Positions 13,528 through 43,018 of a stretch of 64,000 nucleotides of DNA are shown in pieces (positions within the stretch are counted from its first letter, which is position 1; each line of letters begins with the position of its first letter). The translations under genes and the position numbers were made by a program. Below the pieces are notes generated by a model. The model was not told where the DNA came from. It saw only the letters and a list, made by a program, of their open reading frames with translations, and searched no databases. Origin of the DNA: Candidatus Saccharimonadales bacterium (lineage in GTDB: Bacteria; Patescibacteriota; Saccharimonadia; Saccharimonadales; UBA4665); the NCBI GenBank assembly GCA_036568905.1, contig DATCRQ010000001.1, forward strand, positions 430,399 through 494,398. Direction: 5' to 3'.

Positions 13528-15465
13528 ATGTCGAGACTACCACAAGTTGGCGGTGATGAGGGCGTTTGGGCGCAAATCCTGAACGACTTTTTAGAAGTGG
13601 CGCATACCGCTGACGGTTCATTGGCTTCGGGAACGGTTGGCAGCAGCCAGTTGCAAGCCGCAAGCGTCGGCGACTCGCAGGTAAGCGCCTTATCGCAGAG
13701 CAAGATTACGAACTTGCCGAGCGATCTGAGCGCAGGCGTCGGCAAAAATGCGGCGCTCATAACACGCGCAGCCGGCTTCATCAAAATGATGATGCGATCC
13801 AACGCAACCGTCACGACGGCTAGCACCATTACGGCCGACCACATCTACGACGACAGCTACACCGGCGCCGTTTCAGGGACGTTCAATCTCATCGGCCTAA
13901 GTCCGGCCAGCGAACAACTGTGCCCGATCGACGTCACGACGCCCGTCGGCGATATTCCCGATTCATATTTCAGCACCGTAACCGGCAGTATCACCAATTT
14001 TGGCAGTCTAACGAACGGCCCGTACACCGTCCAAGCTTACAAAACGACCGATGCCGATTACAGCCAGCCATCTTCGGCTACGGTCGATGGCTCCGGCAAT
14101 TTCTCCCTCGACCTTAGTACGACACCAAACTGGGTCAAGGGCACGTGGAAATTTGGCCTGCTGGATAGTTCGAGCAATGTCGTTGGGCAAAAGTGGCCGC
14201 AAAGCACAAGCTACCAAAATATCATCGTGCAACACAACGTCGTCACAGATACAAGTTATCCTGTCGCCAGCCAACCTGCCGCGACGACGGGCAGTTTTTC
14301 GTTTCTCAGCTCACAGGGCGGCATGAAGCAGTTCCAACTTGTCGACTCCTCAAGCGGGAAGGTCCTTGCCGAGCACGTGCCGCCCATACAAAATGTCCGG
14401 TCATATCTCGTGATGAACGGCGAGCCGGGCTACGGCACGAACTTCGTTAATTATTGTTACTCGTATGACCAGGCGATTGCGCTGCTTGCCATGCTGGCGC
14501 TTGGCGACCTCGACACGGCGCAGCAACTCGCGATCGGCTTGCTCAAACTACAGACTTCAGGCGGCCAAAGCGACGGTGCGTTTGTCTTTTCCGCACCGCA
14601 ACTTTCGGCGGCTTACGGCAACGGCTATTACCGCACGGGCGCGCACGCCTTCGCGACCTACGCGCTATTGTGCTACGTCGAGGCGCGCCCAACCGATGGC
14701 ACGCAAGACTACACTTCGGCCATCCAAAAAGCGTTGGCATACCTGGATAGGCAACTTTCAAACAGCGGCACGACGAGCGGGCTTTACCTCGGCGGTACGG
14801 GCCTGTACAACGATCCGTCCGGACAGCCCGAGACGTTCAACGAAGGCTACGACATTGCGTGGGCGTCAGCGGAGCACAATTTTGACGTGTGGCACGCTTA
14901 CAATAAAGCGGCAAGCGTCTTGAACGACACGGCCTCGGGCACGAAGGCAACGACGTTGCAGCAAAACATCCTCAGCAAACTCTGGGACTCAACGCACAAC
15001 CGTTTTTATCAAGGCATGCAGCCAAGCGGCCCGGACCCAAGCGATCCGCTCGACACGCACACGTGGGGTGGCATTTGGCTGCACAACGTTGGGCGTGACG
15101 ATCTGGCGAAGCAAGTACTCAGCACCACGGCGCTCGCACCGTTCAAACTTACCAACGGCGGCGCTACCGGCTACGCGGCCGCCTATGATAATGGCGGCTA
15201 TCCAGGCATCGTGCCGGCGGTGTGGAGCGAGGGAACGTTTGGCGCGGCAATGGCATTTCTTGCAATTGGCGACACCGTCAATTGGCAGGCGACCATTGAC
15301 GGCATCGCTGGCGGCCAGCGGCCGGACGGCTCGTTTCGCTACGTCACCGCAACGGATACGAATTACGAATTTACGTCGTCCGAGGCAACCATTGGTGCCG
15401 CATGGGCGGTCTTGGCCGCGCTTGGCCACGGCATTTGGAACGTTTCCGTACCGCGCAATTCCTGA
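13528..15465 (+). CDS. Tail-fibre-like N-terminal adaptor + beta-rich middle + (alpha/alpha)6-barrel (six-hairpin glycosidase/lyase-like) protein
   Basis: 645 aa with an AAGGGA RBS. The N-terminus MSRLPQVGGDEGVWAQILNDFLEVAHTADGSL matches 20 of 32 residues with the N-terminus of 39794..43018. The C-terminal roughly 340 aa is helix-rich with repeated aromatic/Gly hairpin signatures (YDQAIALLAMLALGD, GAHAFATYALLCYV, WASAEHNFDVWHAY, WSEGTFGAAMAFLAIGD). Confidence 0.7.
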   Translation: MSRLPQVGGDEGVWAQILNDFLEVAHTADGSLASGTVGSSQLQAASVGDSQVSALSQSKITNLPSDLSAGVGKNAALITRAAGFIKMMMRSNATVTTASTITADHIYDDSYTGAVSGTFNLIGLSPASEQLCPIDVTTPVGDIPDSYFSTVTGSITNFGSLTNGPYTVQAYKTTDADYSQPSSATVDGSGNFSLDLSTTPNWVKGTWKFGLLDSSSNVVGQKWPQSTSYQNIIVQHNVVTDTSYPVASQPAATTGSFSFLSSQGGMKQFQLVDSSSGKVLAEHVPPIQNVRSYLVMNGEPGYGTNFVNYCYSYDQAIALLAMLALGDLDTAQQLAIGLLKLQTSGGQSDGAFVFSAPQLSAAYGNGYYRTGAHAFATYALLCYVEARPTDGTQDYTSAIQKALAYLDRQLSNSGTTSGLYLGGTGLYNDPSGQPETFNEGYDIAWASAEHNFDVWHAYNKAASVLNDTASGTKATTLQQNILSKLWDSTHNRFYQGMQPSGPDPSDPLDTHTWGGIWLHNVGRDDLAKQVLSTTALAPFKLTNGGATGYAAAYDNGGYPGIVPAVWSEGTFGAAMAFLAIGDTVNWQATIDGIAGGQRPDGSFRYVTATDTNYEFTSSEATIGAAWAVLAALGHGIWNVSVPRNS

Positions 15466-17291
15466 GCATTGGGCGACGAAGGCTGAGGCAATCGTAAGGT
15501 TACGGCCGTGCCTGCACGCGGCGTCGAAGCAATCGTCAGCGCACCGCCGAAGTAGGTAAGTATAAGCCTGTCGAGGTACAAGCTAAAGCCCATGCCCTCA
15601 TGGTTAAACGTCTCAGCGCCCTCGCTTTTAGCGAACGGCTCAAGCAGCCACGCCAGTTTATCCGCAGGAATTCCTAAGCCGCGATCAGTAATACATAACG
15701 AGAAGCGTCCGTCGTCATTCGTAGCCGTTACCGTAACCTCACTGCCCGGCGCGGCGTAGGCAACCGCATTGTCCAGCACGTGATTGCACACAAGCGTCAG
15801 CAACGTTGCGCTTTGGCCGGCGAAAACAATGTCACGCTTCGGCGTCGCCAGCCGCACGCCCTTTGCCTCGGCTTCTTCGGCCAATGGCCGCCAAGCATTG
15901 GTGATAAGTTCGTTCGCACGTAGCGGTGTGAACGGCGCGTCACTCTTCGCGCCGCGCAGCTGCAAGGCAATAGCAAATTTGTCGAGCATATGGCCTAAAC
16001 GCATCACGCCGTCTTGCACAAAAACTTTGGATTGGCTGGGCGATGTCTGCCCGATGCCGGCAGCCAGGCGTTTGAAGTCCGCCCGCAGCATCGCGAACGT
16101 CTCTGCTACGAAATCTTCCTGCACGGCGAGTTGCTTTTCCGCCAGCTCAACGAGCCGATGTGTTTCGCGCGTATCCCGGCGGCGTAGTTGCACGAGCCGC
16201 GCTACAATATATGAGCTAACAGCCAACAAGACGAACGACGCGATCTGTACGAACAAGGCGGCGCGGCTAAACGACAAACCGCCGACATCCTGTGCCAAAT
16301 AATCAAACAAAGCCGTCAAAACCGAGGCAGCTCCCAACGGCAGCCACAACGCCATCGCGGCGAACGGCCGGACCGGCACGCTTGCTTGTGCGATTTGAGG
16401 AGCGCTGCGCGCCTCGCCGACCAGAGCCGTCACGCTTGTCTGCAGCCGCGCCGCCAGTGACGAAAGCCGCGCGCCGTCAACGCCCATTTCTTCAAGGCCG
16501 CCGCTCACCAACGTTAACGGTGTACGCAGATAATGTGAGACAAGCTCCGTAAACGTGCGCTTCATGTCGCCCATCAGCTGCAGTCGTTTAAGGCGGCGGC
16601 GCACGGCGCGCAGCTCAACAACTTCACGCGATGTTTGCAACAGAAGCAATGCGATGTTCGCCGCAAGGATTATAAATAGGATATAAGGAAAGGCATCTAC
16701 GGCTTGTCGCGGCAATGCCTGGAACAACCGCCGAATACCGCCGCTCAATCCGCCCGAAGCTACCGGGGCGATAGAGCCGACTGCCGCCGCGGCACTGCTC
16801 ACAACGCGCACCGTAAAGTTCTTCGTAACCGTTTGGCCGTCCTGACCGCTCACTACGACCGTAATGTGCGTGCCCGGCAGCTGCTGCGGCAGCCATCGCC
16901 ACTGTGCGGTGCCAGTTTCGTCAGGCGTTGCCGTCGCCGGCGTACTGTTGTTGATTGAAAAACTCGCCGTTTTGAACGACGTGCCCCGGCCGTTCAACGG
17001 CGTCACAATAATAAGGTATCCGCTTTTAGGGATGAGCTGGCCGTCATGAAGATTGATGGAGACTTCGAGGCCTGACGACGGCAGTGTTACAACCGTTTCC
17101 GCATCACCACCTGAATCGCCGGAGGTTGCGCTACTCGATGAAGACCCGCCGTCGCCACTCGCACATGCGCTGCCGTACGCGCACGTGCCGTACGTTGTCG
17201 GGCCACCGTAATCGGCGAAGGTAACTTGTGGAGCGGCCACCCAAAATACGCACAACAAAGCAATGCCCAACCATCGGTGGATTTTTCTCAT
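15363..17291 (-). CDS. Sensor histidine kinase with a large extracytoplasmic domain (no cognate regulator nearby)
   Basis: Signal/anchor MRKIHRWLGIALLCVFWVAAP, an Ig-like extracellular region, 3 TM helices, H-box ELVSHYLRTPLTL, N-box NHVLDNAVAYA, G1 DRGLGI, G2 GMGFSLYL. The track ORF starts at 17333; ATG 17291 fits a signal peptide better. Confidence 0.85.
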   Translation of the reverse strand: MRKIHRWLGIALLCVFWVAAPQVTFADYGGPTTYGTCAYGSACASGDGGSSSSSATSGDSGGDAETVVTLPSSGLEVSINLHDGQLIPKSGYLIIVTPLNGRGTSFKTASFSINNSTPATATPDETGTAQWRWLPQQLPGTHITVVVSGQDGQTVTKNFTVRVVSSAAAAVGSIAPVASGGLSGGIRRLFQALPRQAVDAFPYILFIILAANIALLLLQTSREVVELRAVRRRLKRLQLMGDMKRTFTELVSHYLRTPLTLVSGGLEEMGVDGARLSSLAARLQTSVTALVGEARSAPQIAQASVPVRPFAAMALWLPLGAASVLTALFDYLAQDVGGLSFSRAALFVQIASFVLLAVSSYIVARLVQLRRRDTRETHRLVELAEKQLAVQEDFVAETFAMLRADFKRLAAGIGQTSPSQSKVFVQDGVMRLGHMLDKFAIALQLRGAKSDAPFTPLRANELITNAWRPLAEEAEAKGVRLATPKRDIVFAGQSATLLTLVCNHVLDNAVAYAAPGSEVTVTATNDDGRFSLCITDRGLGIPADKLAWLLEPFAKSEGAETFNHEGMGFSLYLDRLILTYFGGALTIASTPRAGTAVTLRLPQPSSPNAQELRGTETFQMPWPSAAKTAHAAPMVASDDVNS

Positions 17292-17316
17292 GCCGCTTAT
17301 GATAACAAACATTGCC

Positions 17317-17733
17317 TCACAAAAGTAGCGCAATATTTATTGGGGGGCGCGAAAATCGTGGGCTTACGAAGCCAACTCTGGCGGCACATCGGCCGCGAGG
17401 CGCGTGGGGTCGCCGAATGCGGATTCTATAGCAGTGAGTGTGTCGGCAACATTCTCGAGATCGGTTACCGTGGCAGCTGGCGGGCAGTGTGTAGCTTACC
17501 GCGGTAGTGTGCCTCGTAGGCGCGCTGTCGCCAGGCATAAGCACCCACGGTGTTCTCTCTTGCTTCTGGCCGCTGTCGTCAACTGCGTGACGAACCAGCA
17601 TATCACTTGCACGTTCTAAAAGTCTCGCATGCTGCGGAAGCACACCGGTCCGTATCTCTGCTTCAGCCGCCTTAGCTAGCGCTCGCTGGCGCAGTCCAAG
17701 CTCTAGATCGGGTGACGGTTGAATGATCGCCAT
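17317..17733 (-). pseudogene. Decayed paralogue of 17836..18435 (frameshift plus internal deletion)
   Basis: The first 55 aa or so align with the neighbour (IRTGVLPQHARLLERA...TPWV versus IRETLIPQHRALSERA...TPWV). The reading frame then turns Arg/Cys/His-rich. A neighbour-like C-terminal tail (AATVTDLENVADTLTAIESAF versus AATEFVFKDAATTLDSLEAKL) is open in a different minus-strand frame at 17364..17495. Confidence 0.45.
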
Positions 17734-39553: not shown

Positions 39554-39793
39554 GCAAAAATAAAATAGCCGCTTTCGCGGACTAAGTCCCTGGAAGATAA
39601 CCCTGGTTATCCTTTGTAGTATAGCATGCGCGTTTGAGTGGTTTTACACGGCATCATAAAAAATTACAACGACCTTTAGAGGTCAGTCTGGCTTGCAAGC
39701 CGAGGCAACTCACGATACTGTAAGCGCGTTGAAGTTGTAATGCTTTTAGGCAACAGAGTTCAGGGGCTGACTGTGTTTGCTATTGCCAAAATT

Positions 39794-42700
39794 ATGCCTC
39801 GATTACCACTGCCCGGTTCAGACGCAAATCATTGGGGAACAATCCTCAACGATTTCTTGTCGGTCGAACATTCGGCCGATGGCTCACTCAAACTCCGCAC
39901 CGACGGAACGTTGAATGGTTTTTATTCCAAGCCCAGCGGCGGTATTCCGGCTGGCGATCTGAGCGCAAGCGTCCAAGCTTCTTTGACGTCGCCTCAGAAC
40001 TTTGTTGACCTTTCAAGTTTGCAGACGATTAATGGCGCTAAGACGTTCTCGCAAAATATTTCCGTGCCCGGCGGCACGGTCACGCCGCTCGATTGGCACA
40101 ACGTAAAAACCTACGGCGCCGTCGGCGACGGCATCACCGATGATCTTGCTGCCGTACAGTCTGCCGTCAACGCCGCATCGTCCGCAGGCGGCGGCGTGGT
40201 GTTCTTTCCAAAGGCAACATATTTGTTAAGCGCGGCACTCGCACCGAAGTCTAGCGTTACATTGCTCGGCGTAGGCAGTGGCAGCGTGCTTAAAACCAGC
40301 GCAAACAGCTACATCGTCGGCACAACAACAGCTTCCTTCAGCGACTTCACCATAGACAGCATTACGTTTGTCGGGCCGGTCAACAATAGCGTTTCCGTCC
40401 CGACGCGCGCCCGTACCACGTCGGGCAACGGCGCGCAAAATGCCGTGTACCTCGACACAAATCAAGATCCGTACAACCCGGGCGGTGGTGCAATCACCAA
40501 TTTCACGATGCGCAATTGCACGGTCAAAGACTGTACGGCGCTGCCAATCAACATTCGCGGCGTGGGCGGCGTCGTGCGCGTAGTAAATAATAATTTCTAT
40601 AATAACCAGGACGTCGGCTTCATTTATTGCAGCGAGGTTATCTTTGCCAACAACCACGTGCAAATGTCCGCCGACAACGGTGTGTCCATCTCGCGAGGCA
40701 ACCAAAAGGTAAGTTGCACCGGCAATACATTCGATAACTGTTGCTACAACGGCATTTGGCTGTCCGGCTTTGATGTCCAAGGTAACGGTGCCCTCAACGA
40801 AACCGGCCCGACGTTTTTCTCGTGCACTGGCAACACGATTACCAACGTTGGCTTCAATGGCATTATCGCCGACGGCGCTCCGGCGCACGGCGTCATCTCC
40901 GGCAACTTCATTAACCAAGGATACTTCCGTGGCCCAAGCGACCAGCCGAGTGACGTCAATGGCGCCGGCATTTACATCGGCGGCTATCCAATCAGCGCGC
41001 GCACGTCGCCAACGGCATACGCCACTAATATCAACGTCGTTGGTAACACGTTATATCAATGCGCACGCGCCGGCGTATACGTCACGGGCGCGAAAGCGAT
41101 TAACATTGACGCCAACCTCATTCTCAACTGCGGCACGCAGTTCAAGGCCGACGGCGCGACGGCCATCGCCAGCAGCGACAGTTCGCAGAACGTCGGCGTC
41201 CTCATCGACAATGTCAGCACCAATACCGACATATGCGTTCGCATGAACACCGTCCTCGATGAACGTAGCACGCCTTACTGCAATCAGGCACTTGCGCCGC
41301 AATCGCCACCAAGCTCGTTTATGTATTACTACAACCAGATGACCGGCTGTCGCAACGCGTATAATTTGCTTGATTACACATCAAATACGCGCGAAATTTC
41401 CGGGACCTATCGCTTTGACAGCCCGCTCAAAGCTGTCGGCGGCGCGACGGCCGGCAGCAATGCCGGCACCGGCACGGTCGCCGGCTTTGACATCAACGGC
41501 GCGTCAGGCTCTACCCGGCCGTTCCGCTTGCTCACGGCGGGCAATGCACGCTGGCTCATGCGTGCGAGTTCTACGGCAGAGAGCGGTTCCAACGTTGGCT
41601 CAGATTTTGCTATCGACGCCTACGACGACACCGGCACGTACCTCAGCAGTCCGCTCACCATCACGCGCGCAACGCAGGCAACAACGATCGCCAGACTCAT
41701 CGCCAATTCGCTGAGCCTGACAGGAGGCATGAGTTCGTCGCTGAGCATGAACGGCAACGATATTCTAAACGCCCACAACATTACCGACACCAACAACAGC
41801 ATCGTATTAGCGTTTGTACCGACGGCCAACGCGGTGAATTATATTGCCGTCCAAAACAACACGACGACCAACAATCCGGCATTCTACACCGAAGGTGCCG
41901 ATGCGGACATCGGCATGACCTTCAAAACGCAAGGCAAGGGGACGACCGTCTTCCATCCCGGCACCGATACGGCCGGAGCTGTACAATTCCGTGCCGCGGC
42001 AAACACTGCAGCCGCAACAGTGCTCGGCATCGATACCGCCAACGGCAGAGTCGGAATCAACACTGCGGCGCCCGCCAATGCACTCGACGTCAACGGCACG
42101 CTCTCGGCGACGTCCTTAAAGATAACTACCTCGCCGGCAGCCGGCTACGTATTGACCTCGGATGCCTCGGGAAATGCAACGTGGCAGGCGACGGCTGTCT
42201 CGGGCACTGCCGGTGGTGATCTCGCCGGCACATATCCCAACCCAACGCTCACGGGCAGCGCGAATGTCGAGAGCATCATCCGCGCCAATCGCCTCGATCA
42301 ATTCGCCGCACCGACATCAAGTGTCTCGCTCAGTTCACAAAAGATCACCAACCTTGCAAATGGTAGTGCAACAACTGACGCCGCAACCTTTGGCCAAATC
42401 CCCGCGGCTACAACGACAGTTCCGTCGCTTGCAACCAGCACGGCTGCAGCAGCCGGCACGGCCATAACATTTGCCCGTGCCGACCATGTCCATCCGGCTA
42501 CGTACGCATGGACAACCGCCGATTACGGATTGCTGTCGCAAAACATGGATATTGCCATGCTTAGTGGCAATAGTGTTGTGCCCACAGCCGGCACCATATT
42601 TCTGGCAAAGATGAACATTCCCGTAGCTATAACGGCGACTAACGTGCTGCTGTGGGTGGCCGTTGCGGGCAGCGGGCTTACCAGCGGGCAAAACTTTGCA

Positions 42701-43018
42701 GCGTTGTATTCCGGCAGCGGCACGCTGCTCGCCAAAACAAGCGATCAATCTGCTAACTGGCAAAACACCGGTTTGCAAACCATGCCGCTCACGGCCGCAC
42801 AGGCATTGAACCCCGGATCGTACTACGTTGCCTTTTGGGTAAACGGCACGACGCTGCCGGCGTTCCGAGCCGGCATTGGCTCGGCGTCGGTGAACGCAGG
42901 CCTCACAGGCAACGCCGCCCGTTTTGCCAGCGCCAACACAGGCGTCACCACAACGGCGCCAGCAACTCTGGGCACGGTCAGCGCCGATGGGCACTCATGG
43001 TGGGCTGCCTTCAGCTAA
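39794..43018 (+). CDS. Mosaic tail-fibre/tailspike-like surface protein: shared N-terminal adaptor + right-handed beta-helix (pectate-lyase-3-like) + fibre repeats + C-terminal beta-sandwich
   Basis: MPRLPLPGSDANHWGTILNDFLSVEHSADGSL. QTINGAKTF. WHNVKTYGAVGDGITDDLAAVQSAVNAASSAGGGVVFFPKATYLL, followed by repeated NN/GN beta-helix rungs. GRVGINTAAPANALDVNG...GYVLTSDASGNATWQ. DAATFGQ. ITFARADHVHP. The track ORF starts at 39740; ATG 39794 matches the paralogous N-terminus. Confidence 0.8.
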   Translation: MPRLPLPGSDANHWGTILNDFLSVEHSADGSLKLRTDGTLNGFYSKPSGGIPAGDLSASVQASLTSPQNFVDLSSLQTINGAKTFSQNISVPGGTVTPLDWHNVKTYGAVGDGITDDLAAVQSAVNAASSAGGGVVFFPKATYLLSAALAPKSSVTLLGVGSGSVLKTSANSYIVGTTTASFSDFTIDSITFVGPVNNSVSVPTRARTTSGNGAQNAVYLDTNQDPYNPGGGAITNFTMRNCTVKDCTALPINIRGVGGVVRVVNNNFYNNQDVGFIYCSEVIFANNHVQMSADNGVSISRGNQKVSCTGNTFDNCCYNGIWLSGFDVQGNGALNETGPTFFSCTGNTITNVGFNGIIADGAPAHGVISGNFINQGYFRGPSDQPSDVNGAGIYIGGYPISARTSPTAYATNINVVGNTLYQCARAGVYVTGAKAINIDANLILNCGTQFKADGATAIASSDSSQNVGVLIDNVSTNTDICVRMNTVLDERSTPYCNQALAPQSPPSSFMYYYNQMTGCRNAYNLLDYTSNTREISGTYRFDSPLKAVGGATAGSNAGTGTVAGFDINGASGSTRPFRLLTAGNARWLMRASSTAESGSNVGSDFAIDAYDDTGTYLSSPLTITRATQATTIARLIANSLSLTGGMSSSLSMNGNDILNAHNITDTNNSIVLAFVPTANAVNYIAVQNNTTTNNPAFYTEGADADIGMTFKTQGKGTTVFHPGTDTAGAVQFRAAANTAAATVLGIDTANGRVGINTAAPANALDVNGTLSATSLKITTSPAAGYVLTSDASGNATWQATAVSGTAGGDLAGTYPNPTLTGSANVESIIRANRLDQFAAPTSSVSLSSQKITNLANGSATTDAATFGQIPAATTTVPSLATSTAAAAGTAITFARADHVHPATYAWTTADYGLLSQNMDIAMLSGNSVVPTAGTIFLAKMNIPVAITATNVLLWVAVAGSGLTSGQNFAALYSGSGTLLAKTSDQSANWQNTGLQTMPLTAAQALNPGSYYVAFWVNGTTLPAFRAGIGSASVNAGLTGNAARFASANTGVTTTAPATLGTVSADGHSWWAAFS

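Follow-up and report, generated by a model that had tools for sequence, protein, structure and literature searches.

The 64,000-nucleotide stretch examined here (the window; positions 430,399 to 494,398 of the single contig of a Candidatus Saccharimonadales genome) encodes two large proteins, the products of open reading frames (ORFs) A and B, whose significant similarity is confined to an N-terminal region containing a conserved segment of 33 amino acids (aa), here called the module. We propose that the module is the N-terminal handle of fibres that lack signal peptides and resemble phage receptor-binding proteins (RBPs), and that it docks a mini-protein of ~65 aa for export or tethering of the folded fibres linked to the twin-arginine translocation (Tat) system; we put the probability of this reading at roughly 0.4. 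Three observed correlations carry it: the same enzymatic head bears either the module or a signal peptide, module and mini-protein co-occur across genomes, and module genes neighbour mini-protein genes and tatC. The genome comprises 979,712 bp (54.3% G+C, 98.3% complete), and its relatives retrieved by a pattern search were nearly all metagenome-assembled genomes (MAGs) of Candidatus Saccharibacteria or Saccharimonadales.

ORF A (645 aa; window positions 13528..15465, forward strand) is composed of the module, a linker, a beta-sandwich region and a head resembling an (alpha/alpha)6 glycosidase. ORF B (1074 aa from the ATG at 39794; 39794..43018, forward strand) consists of the module, a second conserved block, a pectate-lyase-like beta-helix, a fibre and a C-terminal domain; both lack a signal peptide. 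An exact look-up of B retrieved no database entry. Whole-protein BLASTP between them returned a single significant segment at residues 1-39 (22/39 identical, E = 9e-9), and every further segment had E > 1. This agrees with the first-pass annotation, made from the sequence alone, which had placed a shared N-terminus on two proteins 26 kb apart that diverge completely thereafter: the two peptides open ORF A (13528..13623) and ORF B (39794..39889), and the spacing is correct. Its count of two proteins was too low. A six-frame search together with a hidden Markov model (HMM) identified exactly eight ORFs in the genome that begin with the module (E 1e-20 to 4e-23), namely A (genome start 443926, 645 aa), B (470192, 1074 aa), C (974027, 840 aa), D (978521, at least 397 aa), E (261062, 580 aa), F (445, at least 148 aa), G (259224, 1238 aa) and H (185958, 270 aa).

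The module of A (aa 1-33, MSRLPQVGGDEGVWAQILNDFLEVAHTADGSLA; 13528..13626, forward strand) was delimited by BLASTP against B, the eight-copy HMM (E 1e-20) and a low-confidence AlphaFold helix at aa 13-25, and that of B (aa 1-33, MPRLPLPGSDANHWGTILNDFLSVEHSADGSLK; 39794..39892, forward strand) by BLASTP, the genome search and the HMM. Fourteen columns are invariant across the eight copies (R3, L4, P5, G8, D10, W14, L18, N19, F21, L22, H26, D29, G30 and L32), and three parts can be distinguished: an extended R-L-P-x-P-G-x-D-x-G segment, an amphipathic helix W-G-x-I-L-N-x-F-L-x-V-x-H and a turn N-x-D-G-S/T-L. Since the eight copies share only 47-66% nucleotide identity and use different codons at the conserved residues, selection acts on the module as a peptide; the comparison of the eight gave no sign of recent gene conversion or of a common upstream motif, and we read the conservation as acting at the protein level.

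A profile of the eight N-termini, searched against 1.84 billion cluster representatives (clustered at 50% identity), yielded 6,432 matches at E <= 1e-3 and 4,144 at E <= 1e-10, making the module a single query sequence with which all such proteins can be retrieved. A word-indexed protein search limited to the module recovered 11 proteins only. The database search suggested in the first-pass annotation thus revealed a large public family; as to a described one, aa 1-33 are not covered by any Pfam, NCBIfam or PHROG family or by any PDB sequence (0 matches of the profile to PDB sequences at E <= 10), and no homology to described phage anchor families was found in Pfam, PHROGs or PDB sequences. 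Among the top 150 matches, 144 have the L-P of the module at residues 4-6, giving a protein start of the form M-x(1-3)-R-L-P, so the module opens within five residues of the protein start. For the same reason we infer that B starts at 39794 and not at the upstream ATG at 39740. The consensus of the top matches reads R-L-P-x-P-G-S-D-D-G-T-W-G-D-I-L-N-D-F-L-x-V-x-H-N-A-D-G-T-L-K; the Arg is present in 144 of 145 aligned top matches, and the second residue of the protein is nearly always small (A, T, S, P or V).

The heads behind this N-terminus are diverse and of phage type; they comprise carbohydrate-active and receptor-binding kinds of domain typical of extracellular proteins, and all carriers resemble phage RBPs. 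In A, PHROG 7032/13714 ('tail fiber protein') covers aa 239-642 with E 2e-41. In B, aa 115-633 belong to PHROG 29706 ('tail spike protein', E 1e-88) and aa 101-321 to Pfam PF12708 (E 2e-19). These matches bear out the earlier description of a conserved N-terminal module with swapped phage-type heads. Among the other carriers in this genome, E matches a minor-tail PHROG and PF12708, C a beta-helix and NosD, and D and G carry DUF5907 repeats. Across 87 public module proteins, 14 different Pfam families were detected: DUF5907 (20 proteins), pectate-lyase-like (18), Beta_helix (8), BppL_N (7), collagen (3), K1-lyase_C (2) and CBM5/12 (2), as well as single cases of HylP hyaluronidase, GDSL lipase, polysaccharide deacetylase, Spherulin4, NosD and GHL15. 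One handle with many heads is therefore a pattern that, judged by these family matches, holds at large scale.

The head of ORF A bears on a possible role of the module in export. The AlphaFold model of A has a mean predicted local distance difference test score (pLDDT) of 83 and a predicted template modelling score (pTM) of 0.79; aa 75-640 are modelled with confidence and form a region rich in beta-structure and an (alpha/alpha)6 barrel. Against the PDB, Foldseek ranked the methylmannose polysaccharide hydrolase MmpH first (7qsj, E 1e-8, TM score 0.66 on the target), together with GH76 alpha-mannanases and, after these, sugar epimerases. We delimited the head proper to aa 239-642 (14242..15453, forward strand) from the span of the PHROG match, the confident AlphaFold domains and the Foldseek hits to six-hairpin glycosidases. 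A Ser/Gln-rich linker (aa 34-80, including VSALSQSKITNLPSDL; 13627..13767, forward strand) follows the module, with the junction to the body at ~aa 80: homologues of the body diverge N-terminal of this point, and pLDDT is below 50 for aa 1-72.

The 27 homologues of the A body (35-86% identity) carry three alternative N-termini, all joined at ~residue 80. The first is the module. The second is a signal peptide of the classic kind (MKQTVVKIIGSILAAVIIGLVIYHV..ADA, for example; hydropathy 1.9-3.0) and was seen in 12 proteins, of which some bear the names Candidatus Saccharibacteria or Microsaccharimonas. The third (P0175, P0177 and P0178) is a charged start, MSGPAYL..MDEWMRNQEKRITSVERRRRR, followed by a Gly-rich run, and is neither module nor signal peptide. 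Because homologues of the A body carry signal peptides, the A-type head probably works outside the cell; and because the same head takes a signal peptide instead of the module, the module takes the slot of an export or anchoring device, although it is not hydrophobic itself. The maximal hydropathy over 15 residues within the first 50 aa is 0.56 for A and 0.24 for B, and ranges from 0.24 to 0.79 over all eight carriers in the genome, none of which has a hydrophobic N-terminus.

A recurrent neighbour of module genes in related assemblies is tatC, often with tatA (loci L012, L016, L019 and L021). We surveyed 15 module-positive genomes, 11 of which were evaluable, and found the module gene nearest to tatC at 0.2 kb (G329, where it lies between a tatA-tatA pair and tatC), 0.4 kb (G079), 0.5 kb (G131), 0.8 kb (G233), 1.4 kb (G318), 2.9 kb (G248), 6 kb (G383), 11 kb (G169), 24 kb (G109), 50 kb (G277) and, in the present genome, 181 kb. 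Thus, tatC lies less than 4 kb from a module gene in 6 of 11 genomes against 0.38 expected if genes were placed at random (P = 4e-7, ignoring phylogeny); two of these six are placed outside the Saccharibacteria class.

In the present genome, tatC (genome positions 791589-792704, reverse strand) has tatA just upstream on the same strand. Diverging from this pair are two small genes, the first (792879-793223) encoding a protein that has a signal peptide, an AQAYGEGTYS motif and, at its end, a sortase-type LANTG sequence, and the second the mini-protein (793239-793439, outside the window and ~0.5 kb from tatA/tatC). The arrangement of tatC/tatA with the two small genes recurs beside tatC in G079, G233, G248, G318, G131 and G383, and both small proteins share a Y-G-x-x-x-Y-G-type motif. 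The mini-protein opens with a short N-terminus and an M-D/T-R-K-x-F-L motif; ~17 residues of weak hydrophobicity come next, then a basic residue and finally a tail of ~20 residues that ends in GYGSSxYGG. It has no Pfam match. The copy in this genome matches the NCBIfam family NF038009 ('Tat system-associated protein') with E 3e-23 and 81.8 bits, and those of five relatives score 45-63 bits; all six cover nearly the full model (E 3e-23 to 7e-12) at 45-82 bits, below the curated cut-off of 100.

The mini-protein was searched in 32 genomes and was present in 10 of 10 strongly module-positive Patescibacteria and in 0 of 20 module-negative ones (Fisher p = 3e-8, ignoring phylogeny), the negatives including members of the same families (f1 and f2) and the same genus (g8). 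At four loci (L021, L053, L016 and L057) a copy of its gene directly precedes a module gene on that strand, the gap being 37-358 bp; such extra copies form three pairs in G383 and one in G233. It was not found in the module-carrying phages or in the one actinobacterial MAG with a module gene, and its absence from phages that have the module fits a cell-specific export adaptor added to a docking module of phage derivation.

Taken together, docking of the enzymes onto a cellular component, as the first-pass annotation had proposed, remains the best kind of explanation for these comparisons, and the mini-protein is now a concrete candidate for that component; as the partner, a protein with a Tat-type signal appears better supported than some large structure. 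In the scheme we favour, the fibres would fold in the cytoplasm and dock through the handle onto the mini-protein, which would contribute the Tat-type signal and the short GYGSSxYGG tail. The complex would then leave the cell through the Tat translocase in folded form, as a hitchhiker, or stay tethered to the membrane by the uncleaved signal, or both. In this position, the variable heads would face outward to bind or cut envelope glycans of a host, presumably an actinobacterium. A more ambitious form of this idea, which we regard as possible though on the unlikely side, is a dedicated display system in Saccharibacteria and some other Patescibacteria: the 33-aa module would be a universal tag, borne by dozens of different fibres and depolymerases without signal peptides and read by the GYGSSxYGG tail of a 65-aa 'signal-only' Tat substrate that carries the pre-folded trimer through the translocase and holds it on the surface, with heads exchanged with Actinobacteria phages setting which hosts can be attached to or breached.

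Several points weigh against Tat-linked export by the mini-protein. By sequence, the module is neither a Tat nor a Sec signal, having a single Arg, an acidic character and no hydrophobic stretch. In the present genome, no module gene lies near tatAC or the single mini-protein gene, the closest being 181 kb away. Tat is not an orphan system here, and the NF038009 match stays under its curated cut-off (81.8 against 100 bits). Since the co-occurrence and neighbourhood statistics ignore phylogeny, shared ancestry or a variable island could lie behind part of the signal. Module copies in tandem (P0001) or internal, behind a Sec signal (P0012), fit a structural unit better than a signal; the AlphaFold confidence for the module was low to moderate, and a bundle of three was not predicted with confidence (pTM 0.28); and trimeric spikes of 3 x 110 kDa would be a very large Tat cargo. 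Finally, the correlations are what is observed; physical docking, Tat-dependent export or tethering, the trimeric state and the glycan targets are inferred.

As to other candidate Tat substrates, at least eight ORFs in this genome of ~1 Mb combine an RR motif, an Ala/Gly-rich hydrophobic stretch and a lipobox-like Cys (genome positions 151157, 268864, 425220-426005, 492275 and 569918, among others), and these look like canonical Tat-type lipoprotein signals. On this ground we rejected an orphan Tat system with the module family as its sole cargo.

The same linkage to tatC could be taken to mean that a translocase, Tat or another, reads the module directly as a non-canonical export signal, with the mini-protein being an unrelated cargo or a separate factor. 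The strictly N-terminal position, the Arg in 144/145 top matches, the small second residue and the exchange with signal peptides would all suit such a signal. We nevertheless consider it very unlikely: the module has no hydrophobic region and no twin arginine, internal copies exist, and it occurs in phage genomes, where export is unneeded, two of the phage-context versions lacking the Arg (M-A-T-L-P in the complete phage G804 and M-P-S-L-P on the P0001 contig, both described below).

The exceptions to a single, strictly N-terminal copy raise another alternative. P0001 has three tandem copies and P0002 two, while P0012 has a Sec signal peptide followed by three internal copies, which marks the module as a repeatable structural unit. 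It might thus be no more than a self-contained cap, a structure that came from phages with the fibre, that starts the folding or trimerisation of the shaft and that has no docking or targeting role. Both AlphaFold models place a single helix on W14-H26 (pLDDT below 50 with few covering sequences, ~80 with a deep alignment); this one amphipathic helix has an a/d-like hydrophobic pattern, and an axial ion might be bound by the invariant His and Asp residues. As a stand-in for a trimer, we modelled the natural triple-tandem module (P0001 aa 1-126), which gave no confident bundle (pLDDT 59). Moreover, a cap accounts neither for how close to the protein start the module begins (five residues or fewer in 96% of the top 150 matches) nor for the signal-peptide swap on the same head or the mini-protein gene tracking the module. 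On balance, this explanation seems quite improbable to us.

A connection to phages runs through ORF B. Its second conserved block (aa 42-66, FYSKPSGGIPAGDLSASVQASLTS; 39917..39991, forward strand) was found with a 66-aa query in B, D, E, G and H and not in A, C or F, and also occurs in BRock gp186 and LuckySocke gp41. Module and block 2 of gp186 match B aa 1-66 with E 4e-16 (BLASTP). The C-terminal domain of B (aa 909-1059; 42518..42970, forward strand) is homologous to that of BRock gp186 (44% identity over 153 aa, E 3e-28, BLASTP), while LuckySocke gp41 combines module and second block with a pectate-lyase-like beta-helix as in B and E. Unlike B, these two proteins are phage-encoded, and their genes lie among tRNA genes and not in a tail module; their annotations read hypothetical or collagen-like. 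For gp186 (L010:8791-9738), the annotated start lies upstream of, and the gene overlaps, a tRNA-Lys (L010:8845-8918); the true start is likely the module Met at L010:9001, as in LuckySocke gp41.

BRock-like phages are a small group of ~113-kb Streptomyces myophages, BRock itself having been described as a unique myovirus (PMC7453282). A tblastn search of the module against 50,697 phage records detected only BRock, LuckySocke, Alone3, GiJojo and pSt2308 (six records, two being BRock itself), with nothing further even at E <= 10. IMG/VR contributed two viral contigs with the module. One is the complete uncultured phage G804 (102.8 kb, direct terminal repeats, 46-47% G+C), which encodes a 171-aa homologue of H in the order portal, a 973-aa protein, the H-like protein and tail lysins, and whose portal is closest to those of Gordonia and Rhodococcus phages at 21-23% identity. 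Separately, P0001 adjoins a PHROG 'head protein' on a 7-kb phage-like contig. In these two cases only do module genes stand beside particle genes.

The module was absent from 400 other Actinomycetota genomes. A module gene (1,034 aa) was found in one actinobacterial assembly only, on L029, a 10.6-kb contig of an Acidimicrobiaceae MAG that may be mis-binned or viral; the rest of this 2.9-Mb MAG lacks the mini-protein. Among Patescibacteria the distribution is patchy, with 15 of 401 genomes positive and 1-12 copies each. Most full-length modules belong to G079 and the Saccharibacteria class, and a further family (f17) has a shorter variant. The first-pass annotation had taken the pattern as characteristic of how tail-fibre or minor-tail proteins begin in phages of high-GC Gram-positive hosts (actinophages). 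The five BRock-like phages and the single uncultured one, the position among tRNA genes, the absence of any PHROG covering the module and the 0/400 genomes do not bear this out; by these searches, the module exists in a few phages of the actinophage sphere and is not a general actinophage feature.

The presence of the module in these phages lends weight to a docking anchor in the phage manner, as put forward in the first-pass annotation, by which the fibres would plug into a hub on the cell surface (a pilus, an S-layer or a wall-anchored protein) and leave the cell by another route, without involvement of Tat or the mini-protein. N-terminal anchors of phage RBPs are well known from the N-domain of T7 gp17, the head-binding domain of the P22 tailspike and the short anchor peptides of second Klebsiella-phage depolymerases. 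Like them, the module is a small shared N-terminal element on unrelated enzymatic heads exchanged by recombination, and is found in a few real phages; it differs in lacking homology to described anchors, in having no particle genes found with it in this genome and in belonging to genes scattered among housekeeping genes. The N-terminal position, the swapped heads, the multi-gene arrays of other Saccharibacteria (five consecutive module genes in L012, three in L031), and the occurrence in BRock-like myophages and in the complete 103-kb IMG/VR phage, between portal and tail-lysin genes, all suit such an anchor, and the small YG-rich LANTG protein conserved beside tatAC could be its wall-anchored socket.

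A cellular analogy is provided by Bdellovibrio bacteriovorus, which has 21 phage-like trimeric MAT (mosaic adhesive trimer) fibres; these share one conserved N-terminal domain, for which a surface partner has yet to be named (Caulton et al. 2024, PMC10769870). Both cases involve phage-like fibres in multiple copies (eight module copies here and 2-12 in the other positive genomes), conserved at the cell-proximal end and diversified at the tips, in a bacterium that attacks bacteria; in MAT fibres, the conserved end serves retention on the predator's own surface and the tips recognise different prey glycans. MAT fibres carry a signal peptide followed by a conserved beta-rich N-domain of ~130 aa (PMC10769870), whereas the module has 33 aa, one predicted helix and no signal peptide; no sequence relation between the two was detected, and the present organism is a monoderm-type Patescibacterium. 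Against a pure docking anchor, no hub was found, and it leaves unexplained both the exit of signal-less proteins and the perfect co-occurrence with, and adjacency to, the mini-protein. We therefore regard it as an unlikely explanation.

That the genes are stranded prophage or tailocin fibre genes without cellular function, or fibres for a particle encoded elsewhere in the genome, appears extremely improbable, even though the two heads have matches in phage families, B and H share parts with phage proteins and the distribution is patchy. HMMs for the HK97 capsid (PF05065), TerL (PF03354), the tape measure (PF10145) and the portal (PF04860) gave no match anywhere in this 98.3%-complete genome and were positive in control genomes. 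The prophage or tailocin check proposed in the first-pass annotation is thereby answered for these four hallmark families, tube, sheath and baseplate families not having been searched.

The gene neighbourhoods are cellular, in agreement with the earlier statement that no tail, baseplate or capsid genes lie near either copy. ORF A is surrounded by a rarA-like gene, a sugar nucleotidyltransferase, an esterase, a histidine kinase, ABC genes and unknown ORFs, and these unknown ORFs have no structural PHROG match, their sole match being a weak one to a protease (E 3e-4). Around B are GT4 glycosyltransferases, DUF2206, a polysaccharide pyruvyl transferase, an exosortase and an Rce1-like protease. 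B-type relatives in other assemblies again have cellular neighbours, one lying near a pyruvyl transferase, a flippase and a GH5 gene. The eight genes are intact (270 to 1,238 aa, two being cut by contig ends), the module is conserved at the protein level, and full-length orthologues in other assemblies share 53-86% identity, all of which disfavours the alternative, also raised in the first-pass annotation, of stranded phage modules.

Regarding export, co-export of hitchhikers through Tat is established for E. coli HybO/HybC and DmsA/DmsB, where signal-less folded proteins exit bound to a partner with a Tat signal. The pattern of such a pair, a signal-less cargo that co-occurs and is co-encoded with a signal-bearing partner, was found for module proteins and mini-protein (10/10 vs 0/20 genomes, four loci). 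The proposed carrier differs in being a 65-aa, near signal-only protein that would serve many cargos through one tag; to our knowledge, one signal-only Tat carrier for many tagged cargos has not been described. That a tailspike-like trimer can carry a Tat signal is illustrated by WceF (PMC7949094). NF038009, whose full name is 'TatB_1, twin-arginine translocation system-associated protein', likewise comprises proteins of ~65-70 aa encoded beside tatA/tatC; it differs in that all six mini-proteins fall below its cut-off, and its name denotes gene neighbourhood and not a tested function.

A literature search on phage-fibre-like proteins in Saccharibacteria or Patescibacteria returned nothing relevant in the library searched. 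Saccharibacteria live on other bacteria, and published genetic work has implicated pili, a type IV secretion system and adhesins without names in host interaction (PMC10633639). How ultra-small, mostly uncultured Patescibacteria recognise, hold and open their hosts is largely obscure, and the module family offers testable candidate host-range determinants: intact phage-type genes with sugar-binding or sugar-cutting heads and parts common to Actinobacteria phages. The module system combines elements of phage RBP anchors, predator surface fibres and Tat hitchhiking and is a new variation on these. If the proposal is true, it would be a two-part export route for large folded fibres without signal peptides, a new use of Tat and a portable display tag, and the second case, after the MAT fibres of Bdellovibrio, of a bacterium living off bacteria with co-opted viral recognition hardware.

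Further features were noted around module genes. In related Saccharibacteria (loci L019, L022, L024 and L025), module genes lie in a variable island between grpE and dnaK, which also holds multiple 'MALLYxDGFD' proteins of ~330-360 aa and a 97-aa repeat protein. In three genomes (L015, L020 and L022), a module protein of ~226 aa is followed by a conserved 1,155-aa 'MAQLLHxTRF' protein. These and other array-accompanying families were considered as universal partners of the module and rejected, having no homologue in this genome.

Within the window, ORF A overlaps a convergent sensor histidine kinase gene (15363..17333, reverse strand, HATPase_c) by ~100 bases at the 3' ends (15363-15465). The first 141 bases of the contig (positions 1-141, locus L006) are the exact reverse complement of its last 141 (979572-979712, locus L002). 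Each copy falls within a module gene, F at one end and D at the other; both genes are cut short by the contig ends, and their C-terminal peptides there are identical (...VALTTLSNNQVLTYNSTSSKWVNATPASAPVTSVFGRTGVVVAQA). This terminal repeat reflects either an assembly break at a repeat or an invertible or recombining segment that swaps fibre ends. The JGI and Logan assemblies of the same organism likewise break within gene D, and DNA identical to that of this genome is also present in a root metagenome.

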